A DNA stretch of 64,000 nucleotides from Patescibacteria group bacterium (GCA_038062955.1 JBBTWE010000001.1:101411-165410); one strand, 5' to 3'. Positions 6,314 through 62,485 are shown, counted from the stretch's first letter. The notes: generated by a model from the sequence alone, not told the origin. Program-made: numbers and translations.

Positions 6314-6377
6314 ATGTTCTTTTTAAAAACGCGCATATTCGCGAGCTCACGGATGGCTGATTTCTGTACCACAGAAA

Positions 6378-6492: not shown

Positions 6493-6495
6493 GAC

Positions 6496-16754: not shown

Positions 16755-17108
16755 ATGAAAAACTTTCTAAAAGCAACCCAATACTTTATTTTTTCCATGC
16801 TGTTTTTCCCTATGCTGGTTGGAGCGCAGTCAGGCGGAATTACCAGTTTACAACGTCTACTTCAAGTTGGAATGAGTTACATTTCTGTTCTTACAAGAAT
16901 AGTTGTGATTTTTGGTATCATATTTTTCTTTTGGGGTATGGCTTTATTTATTCTGCACGCTGAAGAAGAAGATAAAGAAGAAGATAAAAAAAAGATGCTC
17001 TGGAGCATCATTGCGATAACTGTAATGTTTGCTATCTGGGGCATTATAAAATTTTTTCAAATAGCTTTTTTCGGTAGCATATTCCCAGGTGCTCCGTCAG
17101 GCCTTTAA
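16755..17108 (+). CDS. VirB2/TrbC-pilin-like small membrane protein, paralog 4
   Basis: Start trimmed to MKNFLK; core FFWGMALFILHAEEEDKEEDKKKMLWSIIAITVMF. Confidence 0.55.
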   Translation: MKNFLKATQYFIFSMLFFPMLVGAQSGGITSLQRLLQVGMSYISVLTRIVVIFGIIFFFWGMALFILHAEEEDKEEDKKKMLWSIIAITVMFAIWGIIKFFQIAFFGSIFPGAPSGL

Positions 17109-17125
17109 TTAAATAAAAAAATATT

Positions 17126-17446
17126 ATGAATGGTCCTTTACCTGATGTTGGTTATGTATCACTACTTAATTTTGAGGAATTTCTTGGAAATTTAGTTCCA
17201 GTAATTTTTGTTTTGGCCTTTGTCTTTTTTTTGTGGGGATTAGCTAAATTTATCCTTCATTCAGGAGAAGAAGAAGCAAAAGAAGAAGGAAAGAGAATTA
17301 TGTTTTGGGGTATCGTAGGCCTAGTCATTATGTTTGGAATTTGGGGGATAGTATATTTTTTACTTGATGTATTGTTTGGATCCGGCCCCTTCCAAGGTTC
17401 TAATCAAACTATTGAGATTCCTAATTTTCCCACACGAGTACCTTAA
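17126..17446 (+). CDS. VirB2/TrbC-pilin-like small membrane protein, paralog 5 (no signal peptide)
   Basis: Core FFLWGLAKFILHSGEEEAKEEGKRIMFWGIVGLVIMF, but the N-terminus is a short hydrophilic stretch followed directly by helix 1 rather than a signal peptide. Confidence 0.55.
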   Translation: MNGPLPDVGYVSLLNFEEFLGNLVPVIFVLAFVFFLWGLAKFILHSGEEEAKEEGKRIMFWGIVGLVIMFGIWGIVYFLLDVLFGSGPFQGSNQTIEIPNFPTRVP

Positions 17447-17615
17447 AAATTAAAAACCAGTGACTTGTAACAAGTAACTTGTGACTGATTGGTTGGTTTC
17501 TTTATGCACAGGAGAAACATTGATTATTTAACGTTTACGTAGTATCATTTTGATTATTAAATATAAGGTCGCATTATAAGTTTATAAAGCATTATTATTA
17601 AAAAATAACTAAATT

Positions 17616-17978
17616 ATGAGTAAAAGATTTGTATTTTTATCAAGCGCGCTAGCTTTGGTTGCCACATCGCCATTTTTTGCTTCGGCCCAATTAAATTTTG
17701 GAACATTAACAACCACTCTAGACCGTTTCAAGGATGTTCTTGGCACACTAACAACAGTTATCATAGCTTTGGCTTTGATATTCTTTTTCTGGGGTCTTGC
17801 AAAATTTATTCTTGCTGCTGGTGAAGAAGAAGCAAAAGAAGAAGGAAAGAGAATTATGTTTTGGGGTATTCTTGCTTTCGTTATAATGATCGGTATTTGG
17901 GGAATTGTTAATTTCCTTATAGGCGCCTTCGGTATAACAGGTACTACAGCTCCTAATCTCCCTCAAGTTCCAAGATAA
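17616..17978 (+). CDS. VirB2/TrbC-pilin-like small membrane protein, paralog 6
   Basis: Signal peptide ...FFASAQLNFG; core FFFWGLAKFILAAGEEEAKEEGKRIMFWGILAFVIM. A 45-nt stretch is identical to paralog 5 DNA. Confidence 0.55.
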   Translation: MSKRFVFLSSALALVATSPFFASAQLNFGTLTTTLDRFKDVLGTLTTVIIALALIFFFWGLAKFILAAGEEEAKEEGKRIMFWGILAFVIMIGIWGIVNFLIGAFGITGTTAPNLPQVPR

Positions 17979-17999
17979 TATAATTTACGATAAATCTAA

Positions 18000-18260
18000 G
18001 TGTTGCCAATAATCTACAAGATAAACGAGTTTATAGTGAACCCTATTATCTATCTTATGATAGGGGTGTCTGTGGTCGTTTTTCTGTGGGGGATTGTTGA
18101 GTTTATCGCCAAGTTCGATAGTGAAGAAGTTAAAGAACGTGGTAAAAGAAATATGTTTTGGGGTCTTATCGGAATGTTTATAATGTTTGGAGTTTTCGGA
18201 ATCATCAGGCTAATTTTAGGAACATTTGCTATCACTCCGATCGAACTCCTGACCCAATAG
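18000..18260 (+). CDS. VirB2/TrbC-pilin-like small membrane protein, paralog 7 (short, no signal peptide)
   Basis: Core VFLWGIVEFIAKFDSEEVKERGKRNMFWGLIGMFIMF; 86 aa. Confidence 0.5.
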   Translation: MLPIIYKINEFIVNPIIYLMIGVSVVVFLWGIVEFIAKFDSEEVKERGKRNMFWGLIGMFIMFGVFGIIRLILGTFAITPIELLTQ

Positions 18261-18285
18261 AACTAAAAAATTGAAATTAAAATTA

Positions 18286-18316
18286 AAAACCACCACGTCA
18301 GACGTGGTGGTTTTTA
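18286..18316 (+). terminator. rho-independent terminator of the pilin-like array
   Basis: AAAAACCACCACGTC-AGA-CGTGGTGGTTTTT hairpin plus T-run. Confidence 0.8.
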
Positions 18317-18335
18317 ATTTGTTGGGTAAATAAAA

Positions 18336-18401
18336 CCCCGTAGTGAATTTTGGCATAGCAACTTCGTTGCGGGAGCAATAATGTCAAAATCTACTACGGG
18401 G
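18336..18401. repeat. R4 short hairpin element (CCCCGTAGTGAATTTTGGCAT...ATGTCAAAATCTACTACGGGG)
   Basis: Direct read; left boundary of the GC-rich islet. Confidence 0.75.
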
Positions 18402-18439
18402 TAAAAAAAGCGGCAGAGAATTGAATCCTCCGCCGCTCG

Positions 18440-19582
18440 CTACCTCTCCACAAAGAACTTCACTGGTACCTTGAGCTTTTCACCCTTCTTTACGAAGAAA
18501 CACCATCCTTCGTACTCGTCTGGTGGACCAGTTGGTGTTAGGAGCCATTCTCCTTTTTCAGTGGGGAATTGAAGGCAGTAAGTTCCTTTTTTGGTGTACT
18601 TACTCCAACGGAACTCTCCACACTTTCCGATTCTCTCGTCCCAGATGTCGAATTGAGCTGGTAGCCCGAACTCATCGATGACGACGTTTCTGGCTTCGAG
18701 GATGTGTTCCTCTGGCCACCCCGTCTTCTCTATGAGGTTCGGCTCTCTTCCAGCCTCCATCATGAGTGTACCTCTCGGAAGCTCTACTTTGGCTACCACC
18801 ACTGTCGCACTTGCAACAGGAGTCGGGTTAGAAGCTCTCCATTCCTTGTACAGCAGTGTTTGTTGGACTTGTGTGAAGAGTCCTAATCCAACAACCGCTG
18901 CGAGAACGGTGGCTACCCACTTTCCCCATTTTTTGCCATGGAAAGCGATGGCGAACCAAAGAACAAAGAGGAGTCCTAGAGTGAAACCCCAAAAAATCTT
19001 TGGCTTACCTCGTATGTTATCCCATGCCTCCGGAAGGAGGAACATCATCGGTACATACACGACGGTAAAGATGAGGAGGGCGGTGATCCACAGATACCTA
19101 ATCTCCGGGATCCACAAGAATCCCCAGATTGGTGCACCACGTATCCCGTTCCACATTCTGGAATACAACGGTTTTTTGTTCGTTGTTGTCGGAGTATTTC
19201 CTTCAGGTTTATCTTCTGCGTGTCCCAGATCTTCTTCTTGTACTCTTGATCTGAACATCTCATAGAGACGAGTGAGGCCGAATACTACCGCCGCCAAACC
19301 CAGAAGCATCATGAACTCGTTATTGCTCGTGGATACTGTCGTGGGTGTGTGGTTTAAGAACTCAAGGCCAAACAACACCAAACTCATAGCGCCCACAACG
19401 CACAATGGGATCCAAATAGCCCAAGATTGGTGCGTCCAGATCACTTTGCGAAGTCTGGGAGCATTCTCTCCCAGATATTTCCAAGACTTTTTTCTCCAGC
19501 TAGGAACAGCAAGACACAGGATAACAGTGAGGACAAAAACGCCCCCCACAATCCACAACAGTGTTACGATGAAATTGAGCAT
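18440..19582 (-). CDS. polytopic membrane protein (about 7 TM) with C-terminal soluble Cys/Trp-rich domain; GC-rich
   Basis: 380 aa; hydrophobic segments through residue 260, then roughly 120-aa hydrophilic tail. Codon usage and GC (about 50%) unlike neighbours. Confidence 0.5.
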   Translation of the reverse strand: MLNFIVTLLWIVGGVFVLTVILCLAVPSWRKKSWKYLGENAPRLRKVIWTHQSWAIWIPLCVVGAMSLVLFGLEFLNHTPTTVSTSNNEFMMLLGLAAVVFGLTRLYEMFRSRVQEEDLGHAEDKPEGNTPTTTNKKPLYSRMWNGIRGAPIWGFLWIPEIRYLWITALLIFTVVYVPMMFLLPEAWDNIRGKPKIFWGFTLGLLFVLWFAIAFHGKKWGKWVATVLAAVVGLGLFTQVQQTLLYKEWRASNPTPVASATVVVAKVELPRGTLMMEAGREPNLIEKTGWPEEHILEARNVVIDEFGLPAQFDIWDERIGKCGEFRWSKYTKKGTYCLQFPTEKGEWLLTPTGPPDEYEGWCFFVKKGEKLKVPVKFFVER

Positions 19583-19744
19583 TAGTAGACTCCTTTCGTA
19601 AAGGGTTAAGTGGTTTGCTGGTATAAATCAAAGAACATTGCCAGCTACATATATATCATGGTTTATTTTATAAGTCAAATAATAAAAAGACCCCATTGAG
19701 TTTTCACTCGTTGGGGTCCTGCGCGTGAGAAAATCAGTTCGATT

Positions 19745-21112
19745 TCACTCCTTGTGGTCTTCACCGTCTTCTTCTTTCTGAGGTTTCTTTTCAGGAGAAG
19801 ACGACCTCTTTGGCTCGACTCCCGAGGGCGGGGAAGAAAGCCGAGGTGGATGCACTGGTGAAGTTTTGCCAGCTAGTATGGTGCCCATGACAGCAGTGGT
19901 TAGATCTCCACCGGTCATAAACACCTGGGCAGCTGGGTTGACGGTTTTTTGGAGGGTGTCCATTTGTATTGATAACTCCCCCCCTGGGCTACTGACTGCC
20001 TTTGCCATTTTCTGAAGACCAGCGGCTCGACCAGTAAGGAAAGCTTTCTCTTTTGCGCCGAGCCCTTCTCCTTGAAGTTTGAGATTCTTCCTATTGAAGC
20101 TCGCCTCCCTTAATGCAGCCATAGCCACATTGACTGTTCTTGAGATCCCGTGCCTGTCAACGTAACCGGCATTAAAGTTGATACCCCAAGGGTCATCTTT
20201 CTTTCCGGTTTCAGGATTCTTCTCTTCTCCGATAAGGATCTCTACTCTCCTGTGAATCAATGCGTTTACTTGGGGGATTCGACAGAGAAGCATGAGTGGC
20301 GTCAGCTTAGCAAATTCCGCTTGCGCTGCAGCCACGATCGTGGCTGCAATATCGCGTACGGCTTCTGCTATGGTGCCGCCAGTCTGCACGAACCTCATCG
20401 GACTCCAAATAGTGAATCGGCCGATGAACTCGGGCTCAATTGTCAGCTGATCGTGAAGGGGATTATCCGTTCCCTTCAGGCGTCCAACTAAGTTATCGTA
20501 CGTCTTTTTGTCTTCGGCTGCCATTTTCTCCCAAGCCTCTTGCTCTTCAGTCGTCTGATCGGGCTTGAAATCTGGCTTTGGTGGCAGAGTGTAGACCATA
20601 GTGTTACGGTCGGCAGTTATGATGCGAACCACAACCACATCGTCTTCTCCCTTGTCATCCTTGCTCGTGTAGATCTTTCTGAGCAATTCGTGTTTCGGTA
20701 TTGCAAACTGGATCCTTTTTGTTGGAAACCGTTTGATACTACAGAGAAGCCATGGTACAAACACAGGGCCGGATGATAAGTCTCGAATTGGTTTACCGAG
20801 AAGGAGCAGGGCTGCCTGCTCGTCTGGTCCAATTATTCGCATACTCTTGATGGCAAAAAATACCATTATCAGTGTGACAAAAGAGAATGAGTCTACACTG
20901 AGGCCAGCAAAGTTCTTCAGACCAATCCATAGCCCCACCGTAGCGATAAACAGGATCGCAAAATACGGTACGGGCATGACATAATAGGCAATGCTAGCCC
21001 CCTTCTTATTTCTTGCCCACCAATTGAGTCTAGACTCCTTTTCGTTTGCTTCGTTGTTTGCGGCTGTGTTGTTGGTGTCTGGATCCAGGGGAGGTGTCGT
21101 ATTCGAGGTCAT
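19745..21112 (-). CDS. SPFH/band-7 (stomatin/HflKC/flotillin-like) domain membrane protein; GC-rich
   Basis: N-terminal TM, then SMRIIGPDEQAALLLLGKPIRDLSSGPVFVPWLL...RIQF (SPFH core), later WGINFNAGYVDRHGISRTVNVAMA and AEKEAFLTGRAAG coiled region; 455 aa. Confidence 0.6.
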   Translation of the reverse strand: MTSNTTPPLDPDTNNTAANNEANEKESRLNWWARNKKGASIAYYVMPVPYFAILFIATVGLWIGLKNFAGLSVDSFSFVTLIMVFFAIKSMRIIGPDEQAALLLLGKPIRDLSSGPVFVPWLLCSIKRFPTKRIQFAIPKHELLRKIYTSKDDKGEDDVVVVRIITADRNTMVYTLPPKPDFKPDQTTEEQEAWEKMAAEDKKTYDNLVGRLKGTDNPLHDQLTIEPEFIGRFTIWSPMRFVQTGGTIAEAVRDIAATIVAAAQAEFAKLTPLMLLCRIPQVNALIHRRVEILIGEEKNPETGKKDDPWGINFNAGYVDRHGISRTVNVAMAALREASFNRKNLKLQGEGLGAKEKAFLTGRAAGLQKMAKAVSSPGGELSIQMDTLQKTVNPAAQVFMTGGDLTTAVMGTILAGKTSPVHPPRLSSPPSGVEPKRSSSPEKKPQKEEDGEDHKE

Positions 21113-21230
21113 TTGAGAGTCTCCTTGTTTTGTATTTCGAACTGATTTTCACGTCAAAGAGCATTGTTTCCTACAACGAGTAGGGAACGGTTCTAGTTGC
21201 TACTATATATTCTTTCTATAAAAAAGTCAA

Positions 21231-21297
21231 CCCCGTAGTAGATTTTGGCATAGCAACCTCGGTTGCGAATAAAATAATGCCAAAATTCACTACGGGG
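21231..21297. repeat. R4 short hairpin element (CCCCGTAGTAGATTTTGGCAT...ATGCCAAAATTCACTACGGGG)
   Basis: Direct read; right boundary of the GC-rich islet. Confidence 0.75.
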
Positions 21298-21423
21298 TCA
21301 ACCTGCGTAATGCATCATGACCTTCGCAACACTCCATCGTAATATTTCAATTTTTATGGATCTTAATAGACCTTGACTCAAATGTATTAAAGCATAGAGT
21401 AATTGAAGAGAAATTTTTAATTT

Positions 21424-21495
21424 GGCCTAGTGGCGAAGGGGTAACGCGGCTCTCTGCAAAAGAGTTATGCGCCGGTTCGAGTCCGGCCTAGGCCT
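21424..21495 (+). tRNA. tRNA-Cys (GCA)
   Basis: Acceptor GGCCTAG/CTAGGCC, anticodon loop CTGCAAA, T-loop TTCGAGT, discriminator U; no encoded CCA. Confidence 0.85.
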
Positions 21496-21550
21496 CAATA
21501 TTCATTTCACAAATCACTTAATTTCTTGTATCCTAAAAAGCTAAGAGTTT

Positions 21551-21632
21551 GCCCGGGTGGCGTAATTGGTAGCCGCACTTGACTTAAGATCAAGCGCCGT
21601 AAGGCTTGCGAGTTCGAGTCTCGCCCCGGGCA
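21551..21632 (+). tRNA. tRNA-Leu (TAA)
   Basis: Acceptor GCCCGGG/CCCGGGC, anticodon stem CTTGA/TCAAG, loop CTTAAGA, long variable arm, discriminator A. Confidence 0.85.
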
Positions 21633-21662
21633 CAAGTCATTTTATATAAAAATAAATAATAT

Positions 21663-21735
21663 CCGCCTGTAGCTCAGTTGGTAGAGCAGATCCCTCTTAA
21701 GGATAAGGTCGAAGGTTCGAATCCTTCCAGGCGGA
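21663..21735 (+). tRNA. tRNA-Lys (CTT)
   Basis: Acceptor CCGCCTG/CAGGCGG, D-arm GCTCAGTTGGTAGAGC, anticodon loop CTCTTAA, T-loop TTCGAAT. Confidence 0.85.
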
Positions 21736-21847
21736 CAAGAAAGCGTTATATGCTTTCGGGAAGGATTCGAAGCCCGATTGAGCTTATTTTATGATCCTGA
21801 TTTTATCGAAGGAGAAATAAAATAACCAATCGGGGTACTGAAACTGT

Positions 21848-21866
21848 AAGTTTCGAATCCTTCCAG
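21848..21866 (+). repeat. partial duplicate of tRNA-Lys 3' end (TTCGAATCCTTCCAGGCGGA)
   Basis: 19-20 nt identical to 21717..21736, located 110 bp downstream. Confidence 0.7.
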
Positions 21867-21907
21867 GCGGACCCGCAATTGAGAGATCGCGGAGCCATTC
21901 TAAATTT

Positions 21908-21991
21908 GCTGGGATGGTGAAATTGGTAGACACACCAGCCTTAGGAGCTGGTGCCTTAATCGGCATGGAGGTTCGAGTCCTCTTCCCAGCA
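21908..21991 (+). tRNA. tRNA-Leu (TAG)
   Basis: Acceptor GCTGGGA/TCCCAGC, anticodon stem CCAGC/GCTGG, loop CTTAGGA, long variable arm, discriminator A. Confidence 0.85.
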
Positions 21992-22149
21992 CAACAAAAG
22001 AAAAGCCGGCTTCAAGTCGGTATTTTCTTTTGTTGTAATCTGGATAAAAGACGAGAAGGCCGGATCGAAGTAGCTATATGAGCGAAGCGAAAAGCTACGA
22101 GTGAGGCGGGGTCGAGCAAAATTTTTTTTAAAAAATTTATGTGTGACCG

Positions 22150-24780: not shown

Positions 24781-24910
24781 ATAAATGATTGAAATATTAT
24801 ACCCCAGATTAGTAAATACTACTTGGTAGTTTAGTAACATGGGGGAATTGAAATTAATTTCCTAGCATATACACATTGTGATATTATTTACTCAACTTAA
24901 AAATTTAGAA

Positions 24911-25020
24911 TTTTCAGATTCGGATGCAGATCAAGGCGCAAGCGAGAACCGTACCGAGACGTATTTAATAATACGTTGAGGGAGGCTCGGAGTGAAGCAA
25001 CGCAGAGATGCGCCGAATAT
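24911..25020 (+). repeat. structured repeat / candidate ncRNA family R3, copy A
   Basis: TGCAGATCAAGGCGCAAG...ACCGAGACGTATT-TAAT-AATACGTTGAGGGAGGCTCGGAGTGAAGCAACGCAGAGATGCGCCGAATATGG; GAGA tetraloop hairpin CGCA-GAGA-TGCG. Confidence 0.55.
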
Positions 25021-25831
25021 GGAAGTTCTTTATATACTTATGGAAGATTTAAGCAAAACCCAAATAATACTTTTAGGACTCCTCGTGAGCTTTGTAAGCT
25101 CTGTTGCTATTAGCATAATGACCTATTCGCTCTTAAGTGAAGCGCCCGCAACTATTACTCAAACAATAAATAGAGTGGTAGAGAGGACCATTGAGACAGT
25201 TGTGCCAGCAGAAAATAAGCCAGAAGTTATCACCAAGGAAGTTACTGTTGTTGTTAAAGAAGAAGATTTGGTTATAGACGCTATTAAGAAAAATGAAGGC
25301 AGTCTTGTCAGAATTCAAGAAATCATTAAAGGGGTTCCACCAAAATTTTCAGCCTTTGGTTTGGTTTTACATAAAGGAGGCCTGATTGCCACTTCAAAAA
25401 CTAATTTTCTGCCTAACGCGACATTTGAGGCAGTCTTGCCAGATAATTCAAAAGTAACTTTGAAAAAAATGTTTGCTCCCACTAAAAACTTTTCATTTTT
25501 TACCGTTGAGAATTCTGCCCAAAAAGAATTTGTAGGCGCATCGATGGGGGATTCTGATACTTTACAGCTTGGACAGACAGTTATTTCTATACGAGGGGTT
25601 GAACGCAACACTGTATCAATTGGCAGAATAAACGGACTCTTGCTGACTCCAGAAAATAGTGAAAATGCCACATCTTCCAGATATTCTCTTATTGAGAGTG
25701 ATGTCTTAAATGGGGAAGTTGGCAGTCCGGCTCTAAACCTAAACGGAGAACTCATTGGAATGAGTTCCGGCCAGCTCGGAAATTTTATTCCGATAAATCT
25801 TCTGAAATTAGAAATGCAAAATCTAATCTAG
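25019..25831 (+). CDS. membrane-anchored trypsin-like (S1C/HtrA-like) domain protein with substituted catalytic triad (likely pseudo-protease)
   Basis: [17 protein letters not shown] and [28 protein letters not shown] are colinear with HtrA ADSDALRVGD... and [26 protein letters not shown], but the GNSGG Ser box reads GEVGS and the His/Asp positions are also substituted. Confidence 0.5.
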   Translation: [270 protein letters not shown]

Positions 25832-25887: not shown

Positions 25888-25957
25888 GTTGATTTTTGCC
25901 CTTCAAAAATCACGTCGTAAGATTTTCTACAATGTAATTGTGGAAAATTTACGACGC
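25888..25957 (+). repeat. R2-related element (ATTTTTGCCCTTCAAAAATCACG plus 45-nt hairpin CGTCGTAAGATTTTCTACAA...TTGTGGAAAATTTACGACG)
   Basis: Shares core with 401..516 / 6378..6492; near-identical copy at 41083..41147 with compensatory loop change. Confidence 0.7.
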
Positions 25958-25991
25958 GGGTGTCGCTAAATATAAAAGTTCGAACACTTCA

Positions 25992-32298: not shown

Positions 32299-32369
32299 GG
32301 GCGATTAGTTAAGTGGTATAACTGCGGTCTCCAAAACCGCCGTCGGAGGTCCGATTCCTCCATCGCCCG
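32299..32369 (+). tRNA. tRNA-Trp (CCA)
   Basis: Acceptor GGGCGAT/ATCGCCC, anticodon stem GCGGT/ACCGC, loop CTCCAAA, discriminator G. Confidence 0.85.
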
Positions 32370-32541
32370 CAATGATCAATAAGAAAGTCTAAACGACTTT
32401 CGAATTGAATATCATTTCGAGAAAGATGGGGAATCGGAAGTCGGAGCGCGACGGCGCGAGGCGGGGTCGCGAAATTTTTCAGCAGAAAAATATTTGTGAT
32501 CTATTCCTCCATTGCGTGCATTTGGTGGATTTTAAAGTAAA

Positions 32542-32581
32542 AATAACATACTCACATACTTGGTAATGTGAAAATGTTATT
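32542..32581. repeat. 40-nt hairpin element R5 (AATAACATACTCACATACTTGGTAATGTGAAAATGTTATT)
   Basis: Direct read; near-identical copy at 37119..37164; the pair brackets 32597..37019. Confidence 0.8.
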
Positions 32582-32596
32582 GTAGGATTTGATTAA

Positions 32597-35050
32597 TTGA
32601 ATTATATGGAGTTGATAAGGAATTTCGATAAAATAAGCAAAAATGACGCTGGAATTGCTGGTGGAAAAGGGGCGTCTCTTGGAGAAATGAGCCAAGCTGG
32701 GCTTCCTGTGCCACCTGGTTTTGTAATTCTCTCGGGATGTTTTGAACAGTTTCTCAAAGAAACTGATCTCTATCAGGAAATTGATTCTATTCTCCATAAG
32801 GTTAATCATAAAGAAATTCATACTGTCGAAGGAGCTTCTGAACAGATTCGAGAGCTTATTTTGAACGCAGAAATGCCAAAGGATATTTCCGTTGATATTC
32901 AAAAGAAATTTAAGAAACTTGATGCAAAATATGTAGCAGTGCGCTCGAGCGCAACAGCGGAGGACGGCAAGGATCATGCTTGGGCGGGACAACTCGAATC
33001 ATATTTGAATACGAGAGAAGCCGAGGTACTGGCAAAAGTAAAACTTTGTTGGTCTTCACTTTTTACCCCTCGGGCAATTTTCTACCGTTTCGAAAAAGGC
33101 TTACACTCAACAAAAATATCGGTGGCAGTTGTCATCCAAAAAATGGTGGAATCAGAATTTTCTGGCATTGCTTTCTCGGTCCATCCTGTTACTGAAGACT
33201 ATAATCAACTTATCATTGAAGCTGGTTTTGGTTTGGGAGAAGCGATTGTATCGGGCTCTGTTACACCAGACTCATATGTGGTAGAAAAGGAACCAAGAAA
33301 TATTTTGGATATAAACGTTTCAACTCAAGATCGTGCATTGTATCGATCAGAGAAATCTTTGGCCGAGCATGGTAATAATGAATGGAGAGATATTTCAGAA
33401 CCTCAAGCTTCATCTCAAGTTCTGACAACAGAACAGATTCTTGAACTTTCAGAAATTATTCTCAAAATCGAAAATCATTACGGTTTTCCGTGTGACATTG
33501 AATGGGCTTTTGAGAAAGGGAAGTTTTATATAACCCAAAGCAGACCGATTACGACACTTTCAAGTAATAAATCTTTAAAGAAAAAAATTCTTGCTGAAAA
33601 ATTCATTGAAGAGATTGGTAATCAAGAGCTTCGTCCACCTATCTACAATTCTTCTATGTTGGTGCATCAAAGTGGGTGGAATACATCTAAATATTTTGGA
33701 AAATACTATAAGTCACAAATTCCTTCTCCACTCTTTTTTCACACCAAAGGAAGTAGTGGGGTATTATATGCATCAACGGGGAAGGAGAAAGATCTTGTAA
33801 GTGAAGTTTTTCGCGAGTATTGGAAAAACGAGTCATATATTCATAATCGGTACGACATATTTAAAGATTTAACCAAAAAAATTGATGATATTTTTTTCAA
33901 GAAACTTACCTATAGCAATCTTTCGCGTTTAGCTGAAAAGCAGATCAATTCAATTGTTACCGAACTCGATGAAGTTACATGGAGCATGAATGCTGTGGCG
34001 TTCTATTCGATTTACTTTGATAAAAAAATTTGTGAGGAACTCGTGCAAGAGTTAGGTATTGGTATTTCCCAAGAACGTCTAGATTTTATCTGGGAAAAGG
34101 CTATTGTGGCGCCCGGTATTTCTTTTGAAAAACGAAGAAATCTTTATCTTTTGGAACTTATAGATCAGGGTAAGTCTTGGTCTGAGATAGGTGAATTATG
34201 CCAGTATTTTGATACCGGATATGACAAAATATTTTCTCCCACAGTTATCGAGGAAAAACTTCGCGAAAAATATTCTAGCTATACACCACAGAAAGCTTCT
34301 TCTGAAATTAATCTTGAAGATTTACAGACCGAGAAGAGATTAAAAGAAAACAAGAAATGGCTAGATTCGCTTTCAGATTCTGAGCGACGAATCGCACACT
34401 TCACACAATTTATAATTGAGTTACGTGATGAGCGAAAAGATTTCATTATGAAGGCAGTAACAGGATTCTATAAGATTGCGGAGCGTCTTTTTAAGGATGC
34501 TGGTATTCAAGAAGAATTCATGGTGTTTACAAGTATTCAAGAGCTCAAGAATGGTACGCAATATCTTAAGAAACATAAGGAAGAAATAATTTCTCGAGCC
34601 GAGAAAGGCGTTGTGTTGCTCGTACATTATAATAATGAACAGGAGTTGGAATATGGAACAGTCGAAGAAAATGAAAAATGTGTAAACGAATTTTTTCGCT
34701 CCCAGCAAGTTCACGATTTGAAATCCAACGAACTTCAAGGGCAGAGGGGATCATTTGGTACTGTCAAAGGCATTGCTCGAATTATTAAAGATTTATACGT
34801 AGATCGGGGAAGACTAAACCCTGGAGAAATACTTGTTACTGGTATGACACGGCCAGAATTTGTCCCTCTCATGAAAATTGCGGGTGGTATTGTTACAGAT
34901 GAAGGAGGTATTACATGCCATGCTGCTATAGTTTCTCGTGAACTTGGCATTCCTTGTGTGATTGGAACAAAAATTGCTACCCAAGTCTTGAAGGACGGAG
35001 ATATGGTGGAGATGGATGCCGATAATGGAATTGTAAAAATAATTAAATAA
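32597..35050 (+). CDS. PEP-utilising enzyme family protein: N-terminal PPDK_N ATP-grasp plus central domain plus C-terminal His-swivel mobile domain (PEP synthase / rifampin-phosphotransferase-like architecture, no TIM-barrel domain)
   Basis: [28 protein letters not shown] (PPDK_N); C-terminal [21 protein letters not shown] phospho-His swivel; 817 aa. Confidence 0.75.
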
Positions 35051-35058
35051 ATCTAAAC

Positions 35059-36381
35059 ATGTTAAAACCATCAGAATATACAAAAACAGTAAGAAGACCG
35101 TACCCACCACTACTTAGATCATTGATTTTGGCCGGGACTTCTAATCATAAACACCACAAACATTTTATGGAGGAAGTCTTTGTTTTTGAAGATTTTATTT
35201 CGGTTGATCATATCCTGTATTATGCTAAATCGACCCTTGAACGAAAGGCTAAAAACGTTCCATTTTATTGGATGAAGCCCGGAGTTTTAGAAAGAGTAAA
35301 AAATGAATTAGAGAAAAGAGAGAAAAAACTTATATCCGCTACTTCTCTAGAATTTAATGATTTTGCCAATGCTTATGAGGCCTATGTACCTGCCCTTGTA
35401 CTTATATTCTGTTGTGACGCGCCAGTAGCAAATGAGGTTCGAAAAAGATTATCAAAGAAAATTTCCGCAGAAGAGACAGAACACTTAATGAACGCTTTGA
35501 ATATTCCGCTACAAGATAATTACTATAAAAAAATTGACCACGATCTTTTAATGGCTGAAGATATTGATTCACACGTCAAAGAATATGAATGGATTAAATC
35601 TAGATATGGAGAAAAACATCCCTATACTAAAGAAGAAGCGTTGAAGAAATTAGAGGCATTAGACAAAGCTAGTTTCCTTGCTAAGTGGAATCATGAAAAA
35701 TCAGAATTAAAAGAGGTTATAAAAAAAGCAAAAGAAATTCTTGGCGGTGAAGATGCTGACATAATTGATTTTATGCAGTTTATAATTTTTTACCGCACTC
35801 AAAGAACTGATGTCTTAAACAGAGCTTCTTATCTTTTTATTCCAAAATTTGAAAAAATGGCGAAAGAGAGGGGCTTAAGTTATGTTGAATTATTACATTG
35901 CACTAAGGATGAAGTTGTTAATGATAATTTACCTTCACGAGAAGTTCTTAAGGAACGTATAAATGATTTCGTGATGTTGTTAGACAATGGAGTCGTTAGA
36001 TGTCTCTCGGGAGTTGCGACAGAGAAAATTAAGAAAATGTTTGCAGTTGAGACTTCTGAAATAAAAGAATTTAAGGGTGTTATTGCGTGTAAAGGTCAAG
36101 CGAAAGGAGTTGTAAGGGTTGTTCGAAACAGAAATGATTTTTCCAAAGTTCTTCCGGGTGATATTCTAGTTGCCAGCATGACTACACCAGACATGGTTCC
36201 GATAATGAATATTGCTTCTAGTTTTGTTACTGACGAAGGTGGTATTACTTGCCATGCGGCAATTGTATCCCGCGAACTCAAAAAACCTTGTATTATTGGT
36301 ACCAAAATCGCGACTCAGGTTTTAAAAGATGGGGACCTGGTGGAAGTAGATGCGAATAATGGAATTGTGAGAAAAATATAA
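35059..36381 (+). CDS. N-terminally truncated PEP-utilising enzyme paralog (central domain plus His-swivel, no ATP-grasp)
   Basis: C-terminal [44 protein letters not shown] nearly identical to upstream gene. [14 protein letters not shown] aligns with [14 protein letters not shown] of the 817-aa protein; 440 aa. Confidence 0.65.
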
Positions 36382-36388
36382 AAAAAAG

Positions 36389-36441
36389 AAGCCTTAGCCC
36401 ACTGTGTAGGGGCTAAGGCTTCGTGCCGGTGACTTCACCGG
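36389..36441. terminator. tandem hairpins between convergent genes
   Basis: AAGCCTTAGCCC-ACTGTGTA-GGGGCTAAGGCTT, then CCGGTGA-CT-TCACCGG. Confidence 0.6.
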
Positions 36442-37019
36442 ATAGAGGTGACCAAGAGGCGTCCGCGACGGATCATGTTGATCTGGAAACCTTCGCATTC
36501 ACCGATATTGGCTTCGAGAAAGATGCGCTTCTCCACTTCATCGGCGCCTTCTGTGAATGCAAGGCAGGAAGCGGGGAGAAGTACCGCATGTCCGACAACC
36601 AGCATTCTGGTTGGCGCATCGGATTCGATCAGTTCATCGATCCTCTCGGCCGCAATGCAAGCCAATGTTGCAATTGGCCCGCTCACCCCCGGGCCTTCTC
36701 TGTAGTAGGCATCGAGAGTGGCATAGCCAAGCTTCTTGAAGGCCGCATCCAACGCTTGTGCTCCCGGAAAGGCGGCATCGTAGAAGAGCCCGTCTACTTC
36801 CACTGTGGGTTCTTCTGCGGCGAGCCCCGCGACAATACGAGCGGTCTCCTCCGTCCGAGCAAGACCAGAATGGCAGATCAGATCGAACTGTGGATTGCCG
36901 AGTTGTTCTCGCCGCGCCATCGCTTGAGCTCGACCAGTGTCCGACAGAACGTGGGTCCTGTGGTCACCAGCCGTCTTCACCGTGTTCCCGTGACGCAGAA
37001 AAGTGATTCGAAGGCTCAT
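36435..37019 (-). CDS. histidine phosphatase superfamily protein (PGAM/SixA-like), GC-rich
   Basis: LRHGNT catalytic RHG motif, SGLARTEETA, VVGHAVLL second His; GC about 58% versus 35% surroundings; antisense + ORF 36423..37064 rejected. Confidence 0.75.
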   Translation of the reverse strand: MSLRITFLRHGNTVKTAGDHRTHVLSDTGRAQAMARREQLGNPQFDLICHSGLARTEETARIVAGLAAEEPTVEVDGLFYDAAFPGAQALDAAFKKLGYATLDAYYREGPGVSGPIATLACIAAERIDELIESDAPTRMLVVGHAVLLPASCLAFTEGADEVEKRIFLEANIGECEGFQINMIRRGRLLVTSIR

Positions 37020-37118
37020 CGCCCCCTCCGTATGGTTGTTGGTTTGAAAAGAACAGTACTATAAGAGTATAGCATAAGCTGTCATTATTGTCAACTAAAA
37101 GCCAAGATTTTGATATGC

Positions 37119-37164
37119 AAATAACATTCTCACATACTTGAGAATGTGAGAATGTTATTTTTTA
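37119..37164. repeat. 40-nt hairpin element R5, second copy (AATAACATTCTCACATACTTGAGAATGTGAGAATGTTATT plus T-run)
   Basis: Direct read; overlaps 3' end of miaA. Confidence 0.8.
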
Positions 37165-38114
37165 GGTATGACAAAATCTTTCACCAACTTTTCTATCTTT
37201 TTTAATTCTGAAGGCTCAAACCAATTTATTCTTTTATCTCTCTTAAACCAGGTTCTCTGTCTTTTTACGAAATGCCATATTTCTATTTGAAGACTACTTA
37301 CCATTTCTTTTTCTGTAATTTCTCCTTTCAAATATTTAGCTAAAAATTTATATTCGAGTCCCAACTCAATCATTCGTTTAAAAGACAATCCTTGTTCATG
37401 TAGAGTTCTGGCTTCTTCAATCATTCCGATTTTTATCCTCTCCATTAAACGAGTTCCAATTTTTTGTTTGAGAATTTCATCAGGCAAATCAAGTCCGATA
37501 AATAGGGGACTATACTTGAGAGAATCCTTTTTTAACACTGGGACACTTCCAATTTCTTTTGCTATTTCGATTGCTCTTATGAGGCGTCTCGGGTTTTGTC
37601 TCTCGATCGAATCAGCTCTTTTCGGATCTAATTTTTTTAGAATTTCAAAAAGCTCGGCGGGAGTTTTCTTGTCCAATTTCTTTCGCAGACTAATATTGGG
37701 GGAGACTTCAGGTAAAACTAAATTATCAACCAAGGCTTGAATATAAAATCCAGTACCTCCACAAATAATTGGAAGCTGACCTCTCTTTAAAATGTCCTCA
37801 ATTGCTTTTTCTGCTTTTTCCTTAAAATCTGTAACACTAAATTTTCGTTTCGGATTTGCAATATCTAAAAGATGGTGGGGAACACCCATCATCTCTTTTT
37901 CCGTGATTTTCCCTGAACCAATATCAAGACCTTTATACACTTGTCTCGAATCAGCCGAGATTATTTCTCCGTTAAATTTTTTGGCAATTTGCACAGCCAA
38001 ACTACTCTTTCCGGTTGCGGTCGGACCTAGTATCACTATTATTTTAGGTTTTAATTCATTATTCATTTTATAAAAAAAAGCTCCTGAAGTCGTAAAACTG
38101 TTAGGAGCTCTCAT
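37155..38114 (-). CDS. miaA: tRNA dimethylallyltransferase
   Basis: P-loop GPTATGKS, SADSRQVYKGLDIGSGK; 319 aa. Confidence 0.9.
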   Translation of the reverse strand: MRAPNSFTTSGAFFYKMNNELKPKIIVILGPTATGKSSLAVQIAKKFNGEIISADSRQVYKGLDIGSGKITEKEMMGVPHHLLDIANPKRKFSVTDFKEKAEKAIEDILKRGQLPIICGGTGFYIQALVDNLVLPEVSPNISLRKKLDKKTPAELFEILKKLDPKRADSIERQNPRRLIRAIEIAKEIGSVPVLKKDSLKYSPLFIGLDLPDEILKQKIGTRLMERIKIGMIEEARTLHEQGLSFKRMIELGLEYKFLAKYLKGEITEKEMVSSLQIEIWHFVKRQRTWFKRDKRINWFEPSELKKIEKLVKDFVIPKK

Positions 38115-38445
38115 GGATTGTAGGTCTTGGCACTCTACCTCTCAAGTTTTGCAACATCAGATTCTTCATTATCTGCCTTTTTTTCAGTTTGTAATGAAAA
38201 AACTGAAAAATGATAATCGAACCAAGACCGATTCCTGGCACTGCAGACCATAACAATACGTTGTTTTGGTGGATCCATCCGTATACACCCATAGACACAA
38301 GAGAACATGCTCCAAGAAAGTAGAGGAGTGGATGAATCGCTTCTGTGCTCTTTGGATCGCGATAATTCTTCCACACTTGCGCTGAGAACCCGACAAGATA
38401 GAGAAGAATGGTTGAAACAACGACAAACACTTCTGAAGTATCCAT
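38101..38445 (-). CDS. hypothetical small membrane protein (3-4 TM)
   Basis: 114-aa hydrophobic ORF at the edge of the GC-rich tract. Confidence 0.35.
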   Translation of the reverse strand: MDTSEVFVVVSTILLYLVGFSAQVWKNYRDPKSTEAIHPLLYFLGACSLVSMGVYGWIHQNNVLLWSAVPGIGLGSIIIFQFFHYKLKKRQIMKNLMLQNLRGRVPRPTIHESS

Positions 38446-38589
38446 ACCAATCCTAATGGTAATTTGTTTCTGAAGAACTTATCATCGGAACGTCCGATAA
38501 TTTCTGCCATTCAGGTTGTATTATTTGCCCACAAAAGTCAACGCATAAAAAAAGCGCGCATACCACTAGGGTTGCGCGCCGGGGAACTC

Positions 38590-39513
38590 TCATGGACCAG
38601 TTCCAAAGTACTCTCCAAAGCCGCTAGAGTTCATCTCGATGATTCCCACAGTGGAGAGTAGGAACATCAATGGTCCACTGACCACAAGCATGAGACCAAA
38701 CCCGTAAAATAGCAGTCCGGCAATCCAGATTGCCACTGCAGGCAGGAAGACTCTCATGACATTCTGAACGTGACTCTTCGAGCCTAGGAGTCTCATCGTT
38801 TCTGGGTCACGGACATGCTCTACCAAGGAAGGCTTCCACTTGGCTTCTGCCACTATTTGGCCCAAGACTTCGCAGATGATACGGCAGTCGAGATTTATCC
38901 GCGGACGACCACCATCGTTTCGTAGTCGCGGGTTTGTAATCTCGAACCGGTATTGGTAGGTATCTCCCAAACGGAGTGGGGCGAAGTATTTTACCTCACC
39001 GTAGCCACGCGTGATGATCTCCACAGGTGTTTCGAGCAGTCTCGGTAGTAGTTCGACAAACTGTCCTTCTGCTCGTGCCAAAACACCTACTCCATGAGAC
39101 ACGGTCCCTTGGAAGAACGATTTTTTGGAAAAAGCAGATTGGCAGTGGGCGGGATTCCAATCTCCTCCTGCTAGCGAATGAAGAAGAATGTGCCATCTTC
39201 CTAAACGCTTTGGTTTCGAAGTGAACACAAGCGATTGTGGTTTTTGAAGCCACTCACACAAATGTCCGACAGACTTGAAACGGTGCACTAGGTCTCCTTT
39301 TGAAGGTTCAGGTCTTGGTTTTACTGGTTGTCCAGTTCTAATGTCCAAAATAACACATCTTAATAAAAAAGTAAAGCCTTGTATCAAGGCGGCACACATT
39401 GATCTTGTAAATTTAAATAGAAGAAAACCACCAGAGGTCTTGCGACGTGGTGGTTTTTGACCGAGTGCGAAGCTCGGTGGTCGAGGTTGTCTCAGCGAGG
39501 TCCGACACGCCAA
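38590..39513 (-). CDS. MaoC-like hotdog-fold protein with C-terminal membrane anchor (start uncertain, possibly near 39399)
   Basis: GDWNPAH...SHGVGVL (MaoC/hotdog GDxNPxH signature); C-terminal helices VFLPAVAIWIAGLLFYGFGLMLVVSGPLMFLL; GC about 50%. Confidence 0.45.
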   Translation of the reverse strand: MACRTSLRQPRPPSFALGQKPPRRKTSGGFLLFKFTRSMCAALIQGFTFLLRCVILDIRTGQPVKPRPEPSKGDLVHRFKSVGHLCEWLQKPQSLVFTSKPKRLGRWHILLHSLAGGDWNPAHCQSAFSKKSFFQGTVSHGVGVLARAEGQFVELLPRLLETPVEIITRGYGEVKYFAPLRLGDTYQYRFEITNPRLRNDGGRPRINLDCRIICEVLGQIVAEAKWKPSLVEHVRDPETMRLLGSKSHVQNVMRVFLPAVAIWIAGLLFYGFGLMLVVSGPLMFLLSTVGIIEMNSSGFGEYFGTGP

Positions 39514-39743
39514 CCGAGCATACCCTCGACTTGGACCGGCTCGACCAGGCTAGCGGTGGTGAACTTGAGCCCACCAAGACTGCGGAATGAGCTGATCCGC
39601 ATCGTGGCGCCGGATTGGATGTCTTCCACGAAGATCTCGCTCATGTGGTTCCTGTAAACCCGCACGAGACCATTCTCGAAAAGAACAGGGAACATCTCGC
39701 TGTCGTGCTCGTGCCTCGCTGTCGTCGTGGTCTGTTGTGTCAT
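39492..39743 (-). CDS. hypothetical protein (GC-rich)
   Basis: 83-aa ORF in the high-GC tract; no family recognised. Confidence 0.25.
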   Translation of the reverse strand: MTQQTTTTARHEHDSEMFPVLFENGLVRVYRNHMSEIFVEDIQSGATMRISSFRSLGGLKFTTASLVEPVQVEGMLGWRVGPR

Positions 39744-39832
39744 GCGGTACCTCCTTGGTTGGGTTTGTGGTCTTGCTAGAGGATACTACAACTGGTCAAA
39801 AAAGTCAAGGGCTATATTTTGGACATCAAAAA

Positions 39833-39919
39833 TGGTGCCGCTGGTCGGACTCGAACCGACACGGGGTTTCCCCCTCAACATTTTGAGTGTTGCGTGTATA
39901 CCAATTTCACCACAGCGGC
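39833..39919 (-). tRNA. tRNA-Leu (CAA) with encoded CCA
   Basis: Reverse complement: acceptor GCCGCTG/CAGCGGC, anticodon stem CAACA/TGTTG, loop CTCAAAA, variable arm AGGGGGAAACCCCGT, T-loop TTCGAGT, then ACCA. Confidence 0.85.
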
Positions 39920-40050
39920 GTGAATATGACTATTCTACCCTAAAAAAACCGAAAATCAATTTAATTTGTCCCGCAATAAGTCTTCAGAAGACTTTTTGAT
40001 TTTTGTATGATCATGATAAAATAAAGAGAACTAAATCTTGAAAATCAGCC

Positions 40051-41043
40051 ATGGCATCTCAATTTTATAACAATTCAGTTTTTTGGATAGAAGTTGATAA
40101 GATCAAACCAAATCCTCATCAGCCACGAAAAGAGTTTGATGAAGGACAGCTTCGAGGTCTCGCGGACTCTATAAGGCAATATGGCGTGCTTCAGGCACTT
40201 GTCGTTACTCGCCAAGAAATTCCAAAAGAGGATGGTGGTCTTGCTGTTGAATATGAATTAGTTGCAGGAGAGAGAAGACTCCGAGCCTCAAAACTCGCAG
40301 GGCTTTCCCAAGTGCCGGTTTTAATTCGAGTTGTTGAAGATTCGGATTTGATGAAACTCGAGCTTGCGATTATCGAAAATATTCAAAGGGAAGACTTAAA
40401 TTCAGTCGACCGCGCTCGGGCATTTGCTCGTCTCGCAGAAGAATTCAAATTCAAACATCACCAGATTGCTGACAAGGTGGGAAAGAGTAGGGAATACGTT
40501 TCTAACAGTCTTCGAATTTTGTCCCTGCCAGAAGCGATTCTACAAGCCTTAAGCGAAGGAAAAATCACAGAAGGTCATACTAGACCTCTTCTCATGCTAA
40601 TCGATAGGCCGGCGGAACAAGACACATTGTTTAAAGAAATCGTGGCGAGACAACTTACAGTGCGTGAAGCTGAAGCAATTTCTCGTCGTATTGCTTTTGA
40701 TAAGATTCGCAAAAAAGATATAGATCCTTTGACTCAAGCGATTGAACAAGAGTTAAGTAGTACTTTAGGAACCAGAGTCCACATTGAGAGAGGGGAGAAT
40801 GGCGGCAAAATTTCCATTGATTTCTTTTCTGAAGATGAGCTTGATGGAATTTTAAATGTGATTCAGAAAGAAAAAAGCGAGAAAGTTAAAAGTTTAGAAC
40901 AAGCTAGAGACGCGCAGAAAGCAGAGCTTTCCGATGCGCCAGTGATTCTTACTTCCGAAACAGCTCTATTAGACGATCGCTCAAAAGAAGAGAAAGAGGA
41001 GAGTGATGAGGAGTTGTATTCTATAAAAAACTTTTCCATATAG
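40051..41043 (+). CDS. parB: chromosome partitioning protein ParB/Spo0J
   Basis: ParB box GERRLRAS, HTH region, 330 aa with acidic C-terminus. Confidence 0.9.
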   Translation: MASQFYNNSVFWIEVDKIKPNPHQPRKEFDEGQLRGLADSIRQYGVLQALVVTRQEIPKEDGGLAVEYELVAGERRLRASKLAGLSQVPVLIRVVEDSDLMKLELAIIENIQREDLNSVDRARAFARLAEEFKFKHHQIADKVGKSREYVSNSLRILSLPEAILQALSEGKITEGHTRPLLMLIDRPAEQDTLFKEIVARQLTVREAEAISRRIAFDKIRKKDIDPLTQAIEQELSSTLGTRVHIERGENGGKISIDFFSEDELDGILNVIQKEKSEKVKSLEQARDAQKAELSDAPVILTSETALLDDRSKEEKEESDEELYSIKNFSI

Positions 41044-41082
41044 AACTTCCAAATTCAGCGCATCCCATCGTTGCTCGCGCCT

Positions 41083-41147
41083 GATTTTTGCCATTCAAAA
41101 ATCATGTCGTAAGATTTTCTACAACATAGTTGTGGAAAATTTACGAC
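41083..41147 (+). repeat. R2-related element (copy of 25888..25957)
   Basis: GATTTTTGCCATTCAAAAATCATGTCGTAAGATTTTCTACAACATAGTTGTGGAAAATTTACGAC. Confidence 0.7.
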
Positions 41148-41394
41148 TGATCTGCATCCAAATTTGAAAGTTCTAATAAAAAAAGAGCCTTGTGAAATGA
41201 ATCTCACAAAAGGCTCTGTTACTCTATCTCTTTGGGTTCATTGAGTACGGTTAGAACCCCGAAGATAACCGCCAAAAAGACCAATAAGGTCATCCTTGTC
41301 ATGTTGTTGTCGTTAGCCGACACTATGGCGGAAGCGCCGCACAAAATGCATAGACCAAAGGAAATATTGGCCGAGAGATTGGATGGCACAGATC

Positions 41395-48920: not shown

Positions 48921-48940
48921 AAATAGATTCTTTTATTACT

Positions 48941-49045
48941 AGAAATTTTGGTTGCAGATCAAGGCGCAAGTGAGGAGCGAACCGAGGCGTATTAGACAAT
49001 ACGACGAGGGAGCACCGGAGCGAAGCAACGCAGAGATGCGCCAAA
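48941..49045 (+). repeat. structured repeat / candidate ncRNA family R3, copy B
   Basis: TGCAGATCAAGGCGCAAGTGAGGAGCGAACCGAGGCGTATT-AGAC-AATACGACGAGGGAGCACCGGAGCGAAGCAACGCAGAGATGCGCC; about 85% identical to copy A with loop-only changes in hairpin 1. Confidence 0.55.
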
Positions 49046-62425: not shown

Positions 62426-62485
62426 ATTACTCTCATTTTAAACTTTTTTTTTAAAATTAAAAATACATCTTATATACAATTTTAG

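Follow-up and report, generated by a model that had tools for sequence, protein, structure and literature searches.

A candidate split dikinase locus in a Patescibacteria genome: an RPH-type dikinase, a paralog without ATP-grasp domain and a convergent phosphatase between two conserved palindromes

The locus described here lies near the middle of a stretch of 64,000 nucleotides (nt) from a Patescibacteria group bacterium (GCA_038062955.1 JBBTWE010000001.1:101411-165410), which was analysed at its full length and is called the window throughout; its G+C content (GC) is 38.6%. Two 40-nt palindromes flank three genes in the window: gene A, a dikinase of the rifampin phosphotransferase (RPH) type; gene B, a shorter paralog that lacks the ATP-grasp domain; and a small His_Phos_1 phosphatase gene that is convergent on B. 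The segment is bordered by the alanine racemase gene (alr) and a tRNA-Trp gene (32299-32370) on one side and by miaA (37155-38114, minus strand) on the other. Identical proteins are present in ENA ERZ1292632 (Hainich groundwater, 0.1-um fraction) and in an NCBI metagenome-assembled genome (MAG) named “Patescibacteria group bacterium.” The features of the locus, in positions of the window, are the following.

32542-32581 (32-nt core 32546-32577), no strand: palindrome copy 1, with five mismatches to the consensus
32597-35050, plus strand: gene A, RPH-type dikinase, 817 residues from the TTG at 32597 (the public call starts at the ATG at 32606 and gives 814 residues)
32654-33583, plus strand: ATP-grasp domain (PPDK_N) of A, residues 20-329, E 2e-95, with a root-mean-square deviation of 3.4-3.9 to HpeI and to the ATP-binding domain of RPH
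33617-34816, plus strand: helical acceptor (second-substrate) domain and linker of A, residues about 341-740, with the motif LRDERKD
34817-35029, plus strand: phospho-His swivel domain of A, residues 741-811, with the motif GGITCH (PF00391 match, E 2e-25)
35059-36381, plus strand: gene B, acceptor and swivel domains, 440 residues, without ATP-grasp
36154-36363, plus strand: swivel domain of B, residues 366-435 (PF00391 match)
36388-36422, no strand: GC-rich hairpin between the convergent units, -32 to -33 kcal/mol, with A8 on one side
36435-37019, minus strand: His_Phos_1 phosphatase gene, 194 residues, 57% GC, convergent on B, with RHG at residues 9-11 and His144
37066-37094, minus strand: sigma-70-like promoter of the phosphatase gene, TTGACA, 17-nt spacer, TG-TATACT, 11 of 12 matches
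37120-37159 (32-nt core 37124-37155), no strand: palindrome copy 2, with one mismatch to the cross-phylum consensus

On the minus strand, the A8 run beside the hairpin at 36388-36422 becomes a U8 tract that follows the stem, and the G+C-rich stem followed by a U-tract fits an intrinsic terminator. Judged by these sequence features, the hairpin is the terminator of the phosphatase transcript and probably terminates the A-B transcript as well. On its other side, between palindrome copy 2 and the start codon, the phosphatase gene carries a separate, strong promoter-like site, the -10 box of which is extended.

Gene A has the architecture of RPH, as the initial annotation of the locus had proposed. 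PPDK_N (PF01326) and the PEP-utilizers swivel are its two Pfam domains, and the protein stops at the swivel domain. The C-terminal TIM (triosephosphate isomerase) barrel that binds PEP or pyruvate, PEP-utilizers_C (PF02896), has no match in A or B; the same model picked up the barrel in a control protein (locus L042). The possibility that both paralogs are complete phosphoenolpyruvate (PEP) synthases is thereby set aside. The 15-residue swivel motif that had been read from A, which includes GGITCH, is confirmed, and the ATP-grasp motifs, including QSRPIT, are invariant across 36 orthologs. By sequence, the nearest relatives of the ATP-grasp and swivel domains are PEP synthases (8a8e, E 1e-93). 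PEP synthase and PPDK differ from A in their TIM barrel and central swivel; A has no barrel and carries its swivel at the C-terminus. The AlphaFold model of A (predicted local distance difference test, pLDDT, 88) has full-length RPH-Lm as its top Foldseek matches (E 1e-36), and its ATP-grasp domain also matches the ATP-grasp subunit HpeI; outside the ATP-grasp and swivel domains, RPH-Lm alone is aligned.

A shares with RPH and other small-molecule dikinases (PRK06241-type; PMC4844700) the order of ATP-grasp, helical acceptor, and C-terminal His-swivel domain, the fold, and the R-[D/E]-x-x-K motif of the acceptor site. The A-family motif R-D-x-R-K-D is aligned on R666-E667-x-x-K670 of RPH-Lm (HMMER alignment to 5fbs), three residues of which, R666, E667, and K670, were shown by mutagenesis to be needed for the second phosphotransfer (PMC4844700). 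The identity to RPH is about 21%, and A scores well under the cut-offs of the RPH equivalog models (NF041857 and NF000283; 346 versus 999 and 239 versus 1700). By these models A is therefore not an RPH ortholog, though it is RPH-like in architecture and presumed mode of action. Long relatives of A (P0283, P0285, P0299, P0317, and P0361; 1100-1400 residues) have two or three swivel domains and are thus, by domain content, natural fusions in which an A-type dikinase is joined to one or two additional acceptor-swivel modules. The label “Epimerase_2” attached to long relatives was considered as a substrate clue and rejected, as the matches are spurious and sub-threshold in the proteins checked (P0293, P0302, and P0317); the match falls on the swivel in P0302 and near the C-terminus in P0293 and P0317.

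At Pfam level, B contains the swivel alone (residues 366-435, E about 1e-25, GGITCH included) and no ATP-grasp. A BLASTP comparison aligns it with residues 586-816 of A at 39% identity. The profile-profile alignment reaches further and pairs residues 13-440 of B with 341-814 of A (probability 100%, E 4e-72, 27% identity), which makes B a paralog of everything in A except the ATP-grasp. Conservation between the two genes is highest in the swivel parts, at 71% DNA identity over 232 nt. The family of B consists of full-length proteins of ~440 residues that are 42-67% identical and occur in Patescibacteria, Woesearchaeota, and Nanoarchaeota. Residues R13, R182, Y189, Q240, R246, R249, D251, E285, and R300 are invariant in the family, which is further marked by the motif Y-R-T-Q-R-T-D, and the acceptor domain is conserved as much as the swivel domain. 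A conserved full-length family with this many invariant residues argues that B is under selection and not a decaying copy; the earlier suggestion that it might be a pseudo-enzyme loses its ground.

The model of B (pLDDT 94.7) was matched by Foldseek beyond the swivel to RPH-Lm (E 8e-14) and to no other PDB entry. Compared to RPH, B comprises the rifampin-binding and swivel parts, here encoded by a separate gene as an extra acceptor module in the Patescibacteria/DPANN lineage. The acceptor site of B keeps the arginine (R246) and has T247 and T250 at the positions of Glu667 and Lys670 in RPH. The acceptor pocket of RPH is hydrophobic, whereas that of B is lined with invariant arginines, which suggests an anionic or polar substrate.

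B follows A directly, so that an acceptor-swivel gene without ATP-grasp stands beside a supplier of that domain. How common such arrangements are was surveyed with a hidden Markov model (HMM) scan of 86 loci, namely 80 further metagenome loci and six others (loci and stretches from other genomes carry L numbers). Of the 194 swivel open reading frames (ORFs) found, 13 also encode an ATP-grasp in the same protein; a TIM barrel is present in one protein. Additionally, 20 stand-alone ATP-grasp genes were found (311-334 residues, HpeI-like; for example, in L007, L134, and L182). Tandem arrays of swivel-only genes surround B homologs, and loci of at least 15 kb hold one to eight swivel genes each and never more than one ATP-grasp. 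Inside one array the acceptor domains are at most 20-29% identical, often not significantly so, and the swivel domains stay similar.

Two-component dikinases of this kind are experimentally established: in HpeHI, CreHI, and PpsAB the acceptor and swivel domains form the H/A subunit, and the ATP-grasp is provided by the I/B subunit (PMC12167813). B corresponds to H/A, an acceptor-swivel protein charged by an ATP-grasp on another polypeptide. The systems differ in several respects. The ATP-grasp is a free subunit in HpeHI, CreHI, and PpsAB and part of the complete dikinase A here; the acceptor component has 70 kDa there and about 50 kDa here; the known pairs are 1:1, in contrast to up to eight acceptor genes per ATP-grasp among the relatives; and the aromatic catabolism that the known pairs serve has no counterpart in the context here. 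At most one ATP-grasp for one to eight divergent acceptor-swivel genes argues for charging in trans. Together with the natural fusions and the two-component precedent, it points to a mechanism that is the most economical and the most likely: a single ATP-grasp would charge several swivels in trans, and every acceptor domain would have a substrate of its own. The initial annotation had offered phosphorylation in trans as one option for B, and it is now the natural reading of this ATP-grasp-less paralog.

The neighborhoods of two archaeal or DPANN-like loci (L006 and L007) include TrmB-family regulators and an EamA-flavokinase fusion within or beside swivel-only arrays, and a form III-like RuBisCO is also present at the L007 array. 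These neighbors may hint at sugar or nucleotide-related substrates.

The phosphatase matches PF00300 (His_Phos_1) with an E-value of 4.6e-11, and its R9-H10-G11, R55, and H144 are invariant in the alignment of its subfamily. It shares the RHG...R...H core and the small size of SixA and other small His_Phos_1 proteins and differs in scoring far below the cut-off of the SixA model TIGR00249 (23.8 versus 74.5) and also below that of CobC; SixA entries of the PDB align with its N-terminal third only. It falls into a distinct subfamily of its own, with 75 cluster representatives at E < 1e-30, which has a persistent GC excess as a further difference to SixA.

The nearest relatives of the phosphatase with usable contigs adjoin dikinase genes. 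In L128 the order is that of the window, an A-like gene, a B-like gene, and then the convergent phosphatase gene; in L129/L130 the phosphatase gene is divergent from an A-like gene. Across the 86 loci, genes with a His_Phos profile flank the arrays in ten, and 9 of the 12 genes are convergent, with gaps of 20-726 nt (under 200 nt in seven of the nine). This conserved neighborhood backs the functional link between phosphatase and dikinase that had been suspected from the window. SixA removes the phosphate from the His~P of a protein of the phosphotransferase system, in which the phosphorylation chain starts with a PEP-utilizing enzyme. The phosphatase is most likely an antagonist of the dikinase reaction that acts on the product or on His~P.

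An insertion/deletion polymorphism of the dikinase is seen between L129:1838-6615 and L131:5166-6680. The two genomes are related, and both carry the phosphatase gene between secY and adk in the conserved ribosomal-protein (spc) cluster; in one of them an A-like dikinase gene and another His_Phos-like gene are found there as well. One long-form relative of the phosphatase is located on a eukaryotic-looking contig (L132).

The phosphatase gene stands out by composition. Its GC is 57.1% and its GC at third codon positions (GC3) is 0.59, compared to 34-39% and 0.27-0.35 in alr, A, B, and miaA, with abrupt changes at about 36400 and 37000. The initial annotation took the gene to be clearly acquired by horizontal transfer. 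However, an excess is seen in 10 of the 13 homologous genes scored, which lie in seven other loci, with the divergent His_Phos-like gene of L004 in addition. GC3 is 0.59-0.74 versus 0.29-0.55 in the neighbors for L004, L128, L129, L131, L134, L153 (two genes), L169, and L173; the excess is weak in L207, and L179 and L203 are AT-rich exceptions. The GC-rich His_Phos_1 genes have these coordinates.

L004:9393-9935
L128:6001-6564
L129:6001-6615
L131:6001-6612
L134:13222-13857
L153:12632-13917
L169:1993-2487
L173:991-1647

In the window, L128, L129, and L131 the excess is limited to the ORF, as judged from profiles at 100-nt resolution. The L129 and L131 orthologs (secY/phosphatase/adk) are ~50% identical in protein sequence, estimated by eye, and the GC3 of both is ~0.68. 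An excess that is kept in syntenic orthologs of this divergence cannot be explained by a recent, un-ameliorated transfer, and the same excess in seven loci likewise rules such a transfer out as its cause. A donor lineage was not identifiable: the word-indexed search gave four matches, and the exhaustive search came without taxonomy. Antisense or dual coding was rejected as well, as the antisense frames are no longer than those of codon shuffles and are not conserved. Raised GC (45-49%) is also observed at 38000-40000 and 18000-22000 of the window, stretches that cover a MaoC-like dehydratase gene (38590-39513, 48.5% GC) and a tRNA cluster region; the phosphatase gene is thus not the sole compositional outlier.

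The two palindromes that flank the three genes are identical at 36 of 40 positions, in keeping with the near-identical hairpins noted initially. The first was placed correctly at 32542-32581; the interval given for the second, 37119-37164, was slightly wide. In the 64-kb window, a degenerate 40-nt pattern matches at these two sites and nowhere else, and 100 shuffles gave no match. Copy 2 folds with -23.6 kcal/mol (z -7.1), and the imperfect copy 1 with -13.7 kcal/mol (z -2.5). A distance of 16-25 nt separates the end of copy 1 from the A start codon. Copy 2 overlaps the miaA stop codon; it is located upstream of the phosphatase promoter, 26 nt from the -35 box.

The palindrome is not confined to this genome. 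When GTDB species genomes were searched with a degenerate pattern, at least 120 stretches matched (L008-L127), and all figures that follow refer to the matches listed. These contain a nearly invariant, perfect palindrome of 32 bases, ACATTCTCACATTCT-NN-AGAATGTGAGAATGT, in which 28-30 positions are invariant across phyla; even the nine positions that the search pattern left free are nearly constant, the centre excepted. The hosts comprise many classes of Patescibacteria and MAGs labelled as Verrucomicrobiota, Planctomycetota, Bacteroidales, Gammaproteobacteria, and Pacearchaeota, with a host GC of 31-69%. Variant classes alter both arms jointly (ACATTCCAACATTCT... and ACATTCTGGTATTCT...), and the 15 outer pairs are intact in 147 of 178 copies. 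The flanks are unrelated between loci and not T-rich as a rule, yet they are mutually complementary and not direct repeats, and lengthen the stem by 1 nt or more in 97 of 127 cases (range 0-9 nt). Stem mismatches have no G-U bias on the transcribed strand (11 versus 10), which argues for a role at the level of DNA and not of RNA. The copies are mostly intergenic: 78 lie between tandem, 26 between convergent, and 11 between divergent genes, 32 are inside a called ORF, and 22 are at locus edges.

The only recurrent neighbor among the matches listed is a gene of 88-95 residues for an ArsR/SmtB-type winged-helix protein, present at 28 of 120 loci, with CadC, HlyU, and ArsR as best PDB matches. In ~20 cases this gene is bracketed by two palindromes 275-330 nt apart, and often a copy is located 10-50 nt before its start codon. 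Other adjacent or bracketed genes encode RhuM-Fic, AbiEii, PIF1 helicase, EVE, PhnA, MsrB, NUDIX, MazG, PurL, and a true PEP synthase. The last, a gene with a PPDK_N domain behind a palindrome in L042, was considered as a second dikinase case and dismissed, as its product has the TIM barrel. Examples of palindrome loci are the following.

L118:202-555
L084:758-5906
L008:1821-3704

The palindrome is probably a DNA-level protein-binding site, an operator of the ArsR type as far as pattern and companion gene indicate, and this is favored over an RNA element or a mobility site. Like the ArsR/SmtB operators (12-2-12 inverted repeats), it is a long perfect repeat beside or before an ArsR-type gene, and like the CIRCE operator of HrcA it is an inverted repeat kept across phyla. 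It differs from ArsR/SmtB operators in its arms of 15 nt with two heptads each (ACATTCT-C-ACATTCT), in copies that also occur after genes and between convergent genes, and in neighbors that form no coherent regulon. No paper containing the 15-mer arm sequence, and none linking ArsR or palindromes to Patescibacteria, was found in the literature.

The reading favored for the locus, with confidence at about the halfway mark, is a split dikinase for small molecules and a phosphatase that antagonizes it, with a probable operator at each of the two transcription units. The ATP-grasp of A would phosphorylate the swivel histidine with ATP, and the swivel would carry the phosphate to the helical acceptor domain, which in turn would phosphorylate a small-molecule substrate. 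B would be a second acceptor-swivel unit with a different, highly conserved acceptor site and would receive its phosphate in trans from A, so that a single ATP-grasp would supply two substrate-specific modules at this locus and as many as eight in relatives. The phosphatase, expressed from its own promoter, would reverse the reaction by dephosphorylating the product or, as SixA does, His~P. The palindromes would act as putative binding sites of a small ArsR/SmtB-type regulator, and with copy 1 before A and copy 2 upstream of the phosphatase promoter both transcription units would be placed under one control. Under the operator model, such co-regulation of the convergent units fits their conserved functional pairing.

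Several observations weigh against this reading. On the side of the enzymes, B has threonines in place of Glu667 and Lys670, which are essential in RPH, so that its chemistry may differ or B may only be a phospho-carrier. The majority of arrays have no phosphatase, and the phosphatase occurs without a dikinase neighbor in L131, on the P0131 contig, and in the eukaryotic-looking L132. On the side of the operator, copy 1 is degenerate and its stem has internal mismatches, no ArsR-type gene was found in the 64-kb window (tblastn and HMM), and the 26 copies between convergent genes, together with the very mixed functions of the neighbors, fit a simple regulon poorly.

The mixed neighbors and the copies between convergent genes keep alive an unlikely alternative in which the palindromes are recombination or mobility sites and the bracketed genes, A, B, and the phosphatase gene included, are mobile cassettes. 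The palindromes are found at all types of gene boundary and tightly bracket single or few accessory-type genes of mixed function: RhuM-Fic is bracketed in both a Verrucomicrobiota and a Nomurabacteria MAG, and AbiEii, PIF1, EVE, PhnA, and the winged-helix gene are bracketed as well. The same 32-mer is maintained across phyla while the cargo proteins are only about 45-50% identical. Additionally, the segment in the window abuts a tRNA-Trp gene, and a dikinase segment beside the phosphatase gene is present or absent between L129 and L131. Similar to REP/RAYT elements and integron attC sites, these are intergenic palindromes that bracket a small gene and separate unrelated cassette-like genes.

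However, transposases, integrases, and recombinases are not recurrent among the neighbors listed, where the sole recurrent gene encodes a DNA-binding protein of 90 residues, and no HUH transposase or integrase is nearby as in REP/RAYT and attC systems. The flanks show no direct target duplications and just lengthen the stem. The perfect symmetry offers no choice of strand or orientation, unlike attC or IS200-type hairpins, and the few copies per locus and the identity across phyla set the palindrome further apart. No full match was found in phage and plasmid collections, and IMG/VR gave only two shorter matches from viral contigs. The palindrome is also absent, save for one distant relative, from 85 other dikinase loci (~1 Mb); as an integral part of the dikinase module it was rejected, with no copy in L004, L006, L007, L128-L130, or the ~1 Mb of further arrays. 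Its spread over at least 120 other stretches with unrelated neighbors and its absence from the other dikinase loci speak against the proposal of the initial annotation that the hairpins mark the ends of a cargo-specific mobile cassette. The annotation had also named, as a refuting case, a terminator motif that is ubiquitous throughout the genome and unrelated to the locus. The spread of the palindrome over other genomes comes close to this, although in the window it occurs at this locus only.

Somewhat less probable still is that the palindromes are RNA hairpins, 5′ or 3′ stem-loops that terminate, insulate, or stabilize transcripts and whose sequence conservation is secondary. A strong stem is predicted (for copy 2, -22 to -24 kcal/mol on both strands), the median distance of the copies listed is 30 nt from the end of a preceding gene and 49 nt from the start of a following one, and copy 2 sits on the miaA stop codon and is followed by T6 on the plus strand. 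Yet the 28-30 invariant positions exceed by far what a stem needs, and G-U is not preferred among the mismatches on the transcribed strand. The stems are AT-rich, a U-tract is mostly absent, and the intrinsic-terminator scan does not call them; Rfam has no matching family, with a sub-threshold match of copy 2 to mir-5583 only (31.4 bits versus a gathering score of 80). A separate GC-rich terminator, moreover, is already shared by the A-B and phosphatase units.

A third alternative is of the same low probability. It treats B as a non-enzyme in competition for the ATP-grasp of A, be it as phospho-carrier, as sink, or as regulator; the phosphatase would be an unrelated, horizontally acquired passenger. 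The missing Glu667/Lys670 equivalents, the sharply deviating composition, the separate promoter and terminator, and the homologs that stand alone fit it, but the nine invariant residues and the confident RPH-like fold of the acceptor domain, the array neighborhood in ten loci with its preferred convergent arrangement, and the GC excess kept in vertically inherited orthologs do not.

With the split dikinase and its antagonist phosphatase as the preferred reading, a broader one can be put forward tentatively. In the ultra-small symbionts of the Patescibacteria and DPANN, phosphorylation may follow a scheme of “one charger, many acceptors,” with one ATP-grasp, up to eight highly divergent acceptors for different metabolites, and a dedicated phosphatase as eraser; separately, the 32-bp palindrome and the ArsR-type protein of 90 residues may make up a system of gene punctuation or regulation in which accessory genes are bracketed. 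The RPH-like architecture is known, as are two-component dikinases. Multi-acceptor arrays with a single ATP-grasp, the recurrent convergent phosphatase, its GC excess, and the palindrome with its ArsR-type companion were not found described in the literature searched.

RPH-like dikinases are a large family whose substrates are mostly not assigned, and the two-component forms were recognized recently and only as 1:1 pairs in aromatic catabolism. The multi-acceptor arrays are concentrated in organisms with minimal metabolism, where they may provide a compact way to phosphorylate many scavenged or toxic molecules, and every array is a directly testable enzyme set. The palindrome and the small regulator represent a conserved DNA signal, with a defined sequence and a candidate binding protein, in organisms whose transcriptional regulation is hardly understood. 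That one small gene persistently keeps a raised GC in AT-rich genomes is an oddity of population-genetic interest.

Apart from the palindromes, the window contains a second, unrelated family of intergenic repeats of 100-140 nt with internal hairpins, which lie beside housekeeping genes and have no Rfam match. The adjacent genes encode an HtrA-like protease, ClpB, ParB, RecR/DnaB, and an XerC/D-type integrase. The copies are located at these positions.

402-622
6357-6493
24898-25033
25888-25984
41038-41176
48926-49045
62475-62610

Finally, four tandem copies of a coding repeat of ~80 nt (GAAGAAG...ATGTTTTGGGG...TGGGG) are found at 16965-18202 of the window, 297-556 nt apart, which suggests a cluster of small paralogous membrane-protein genes.

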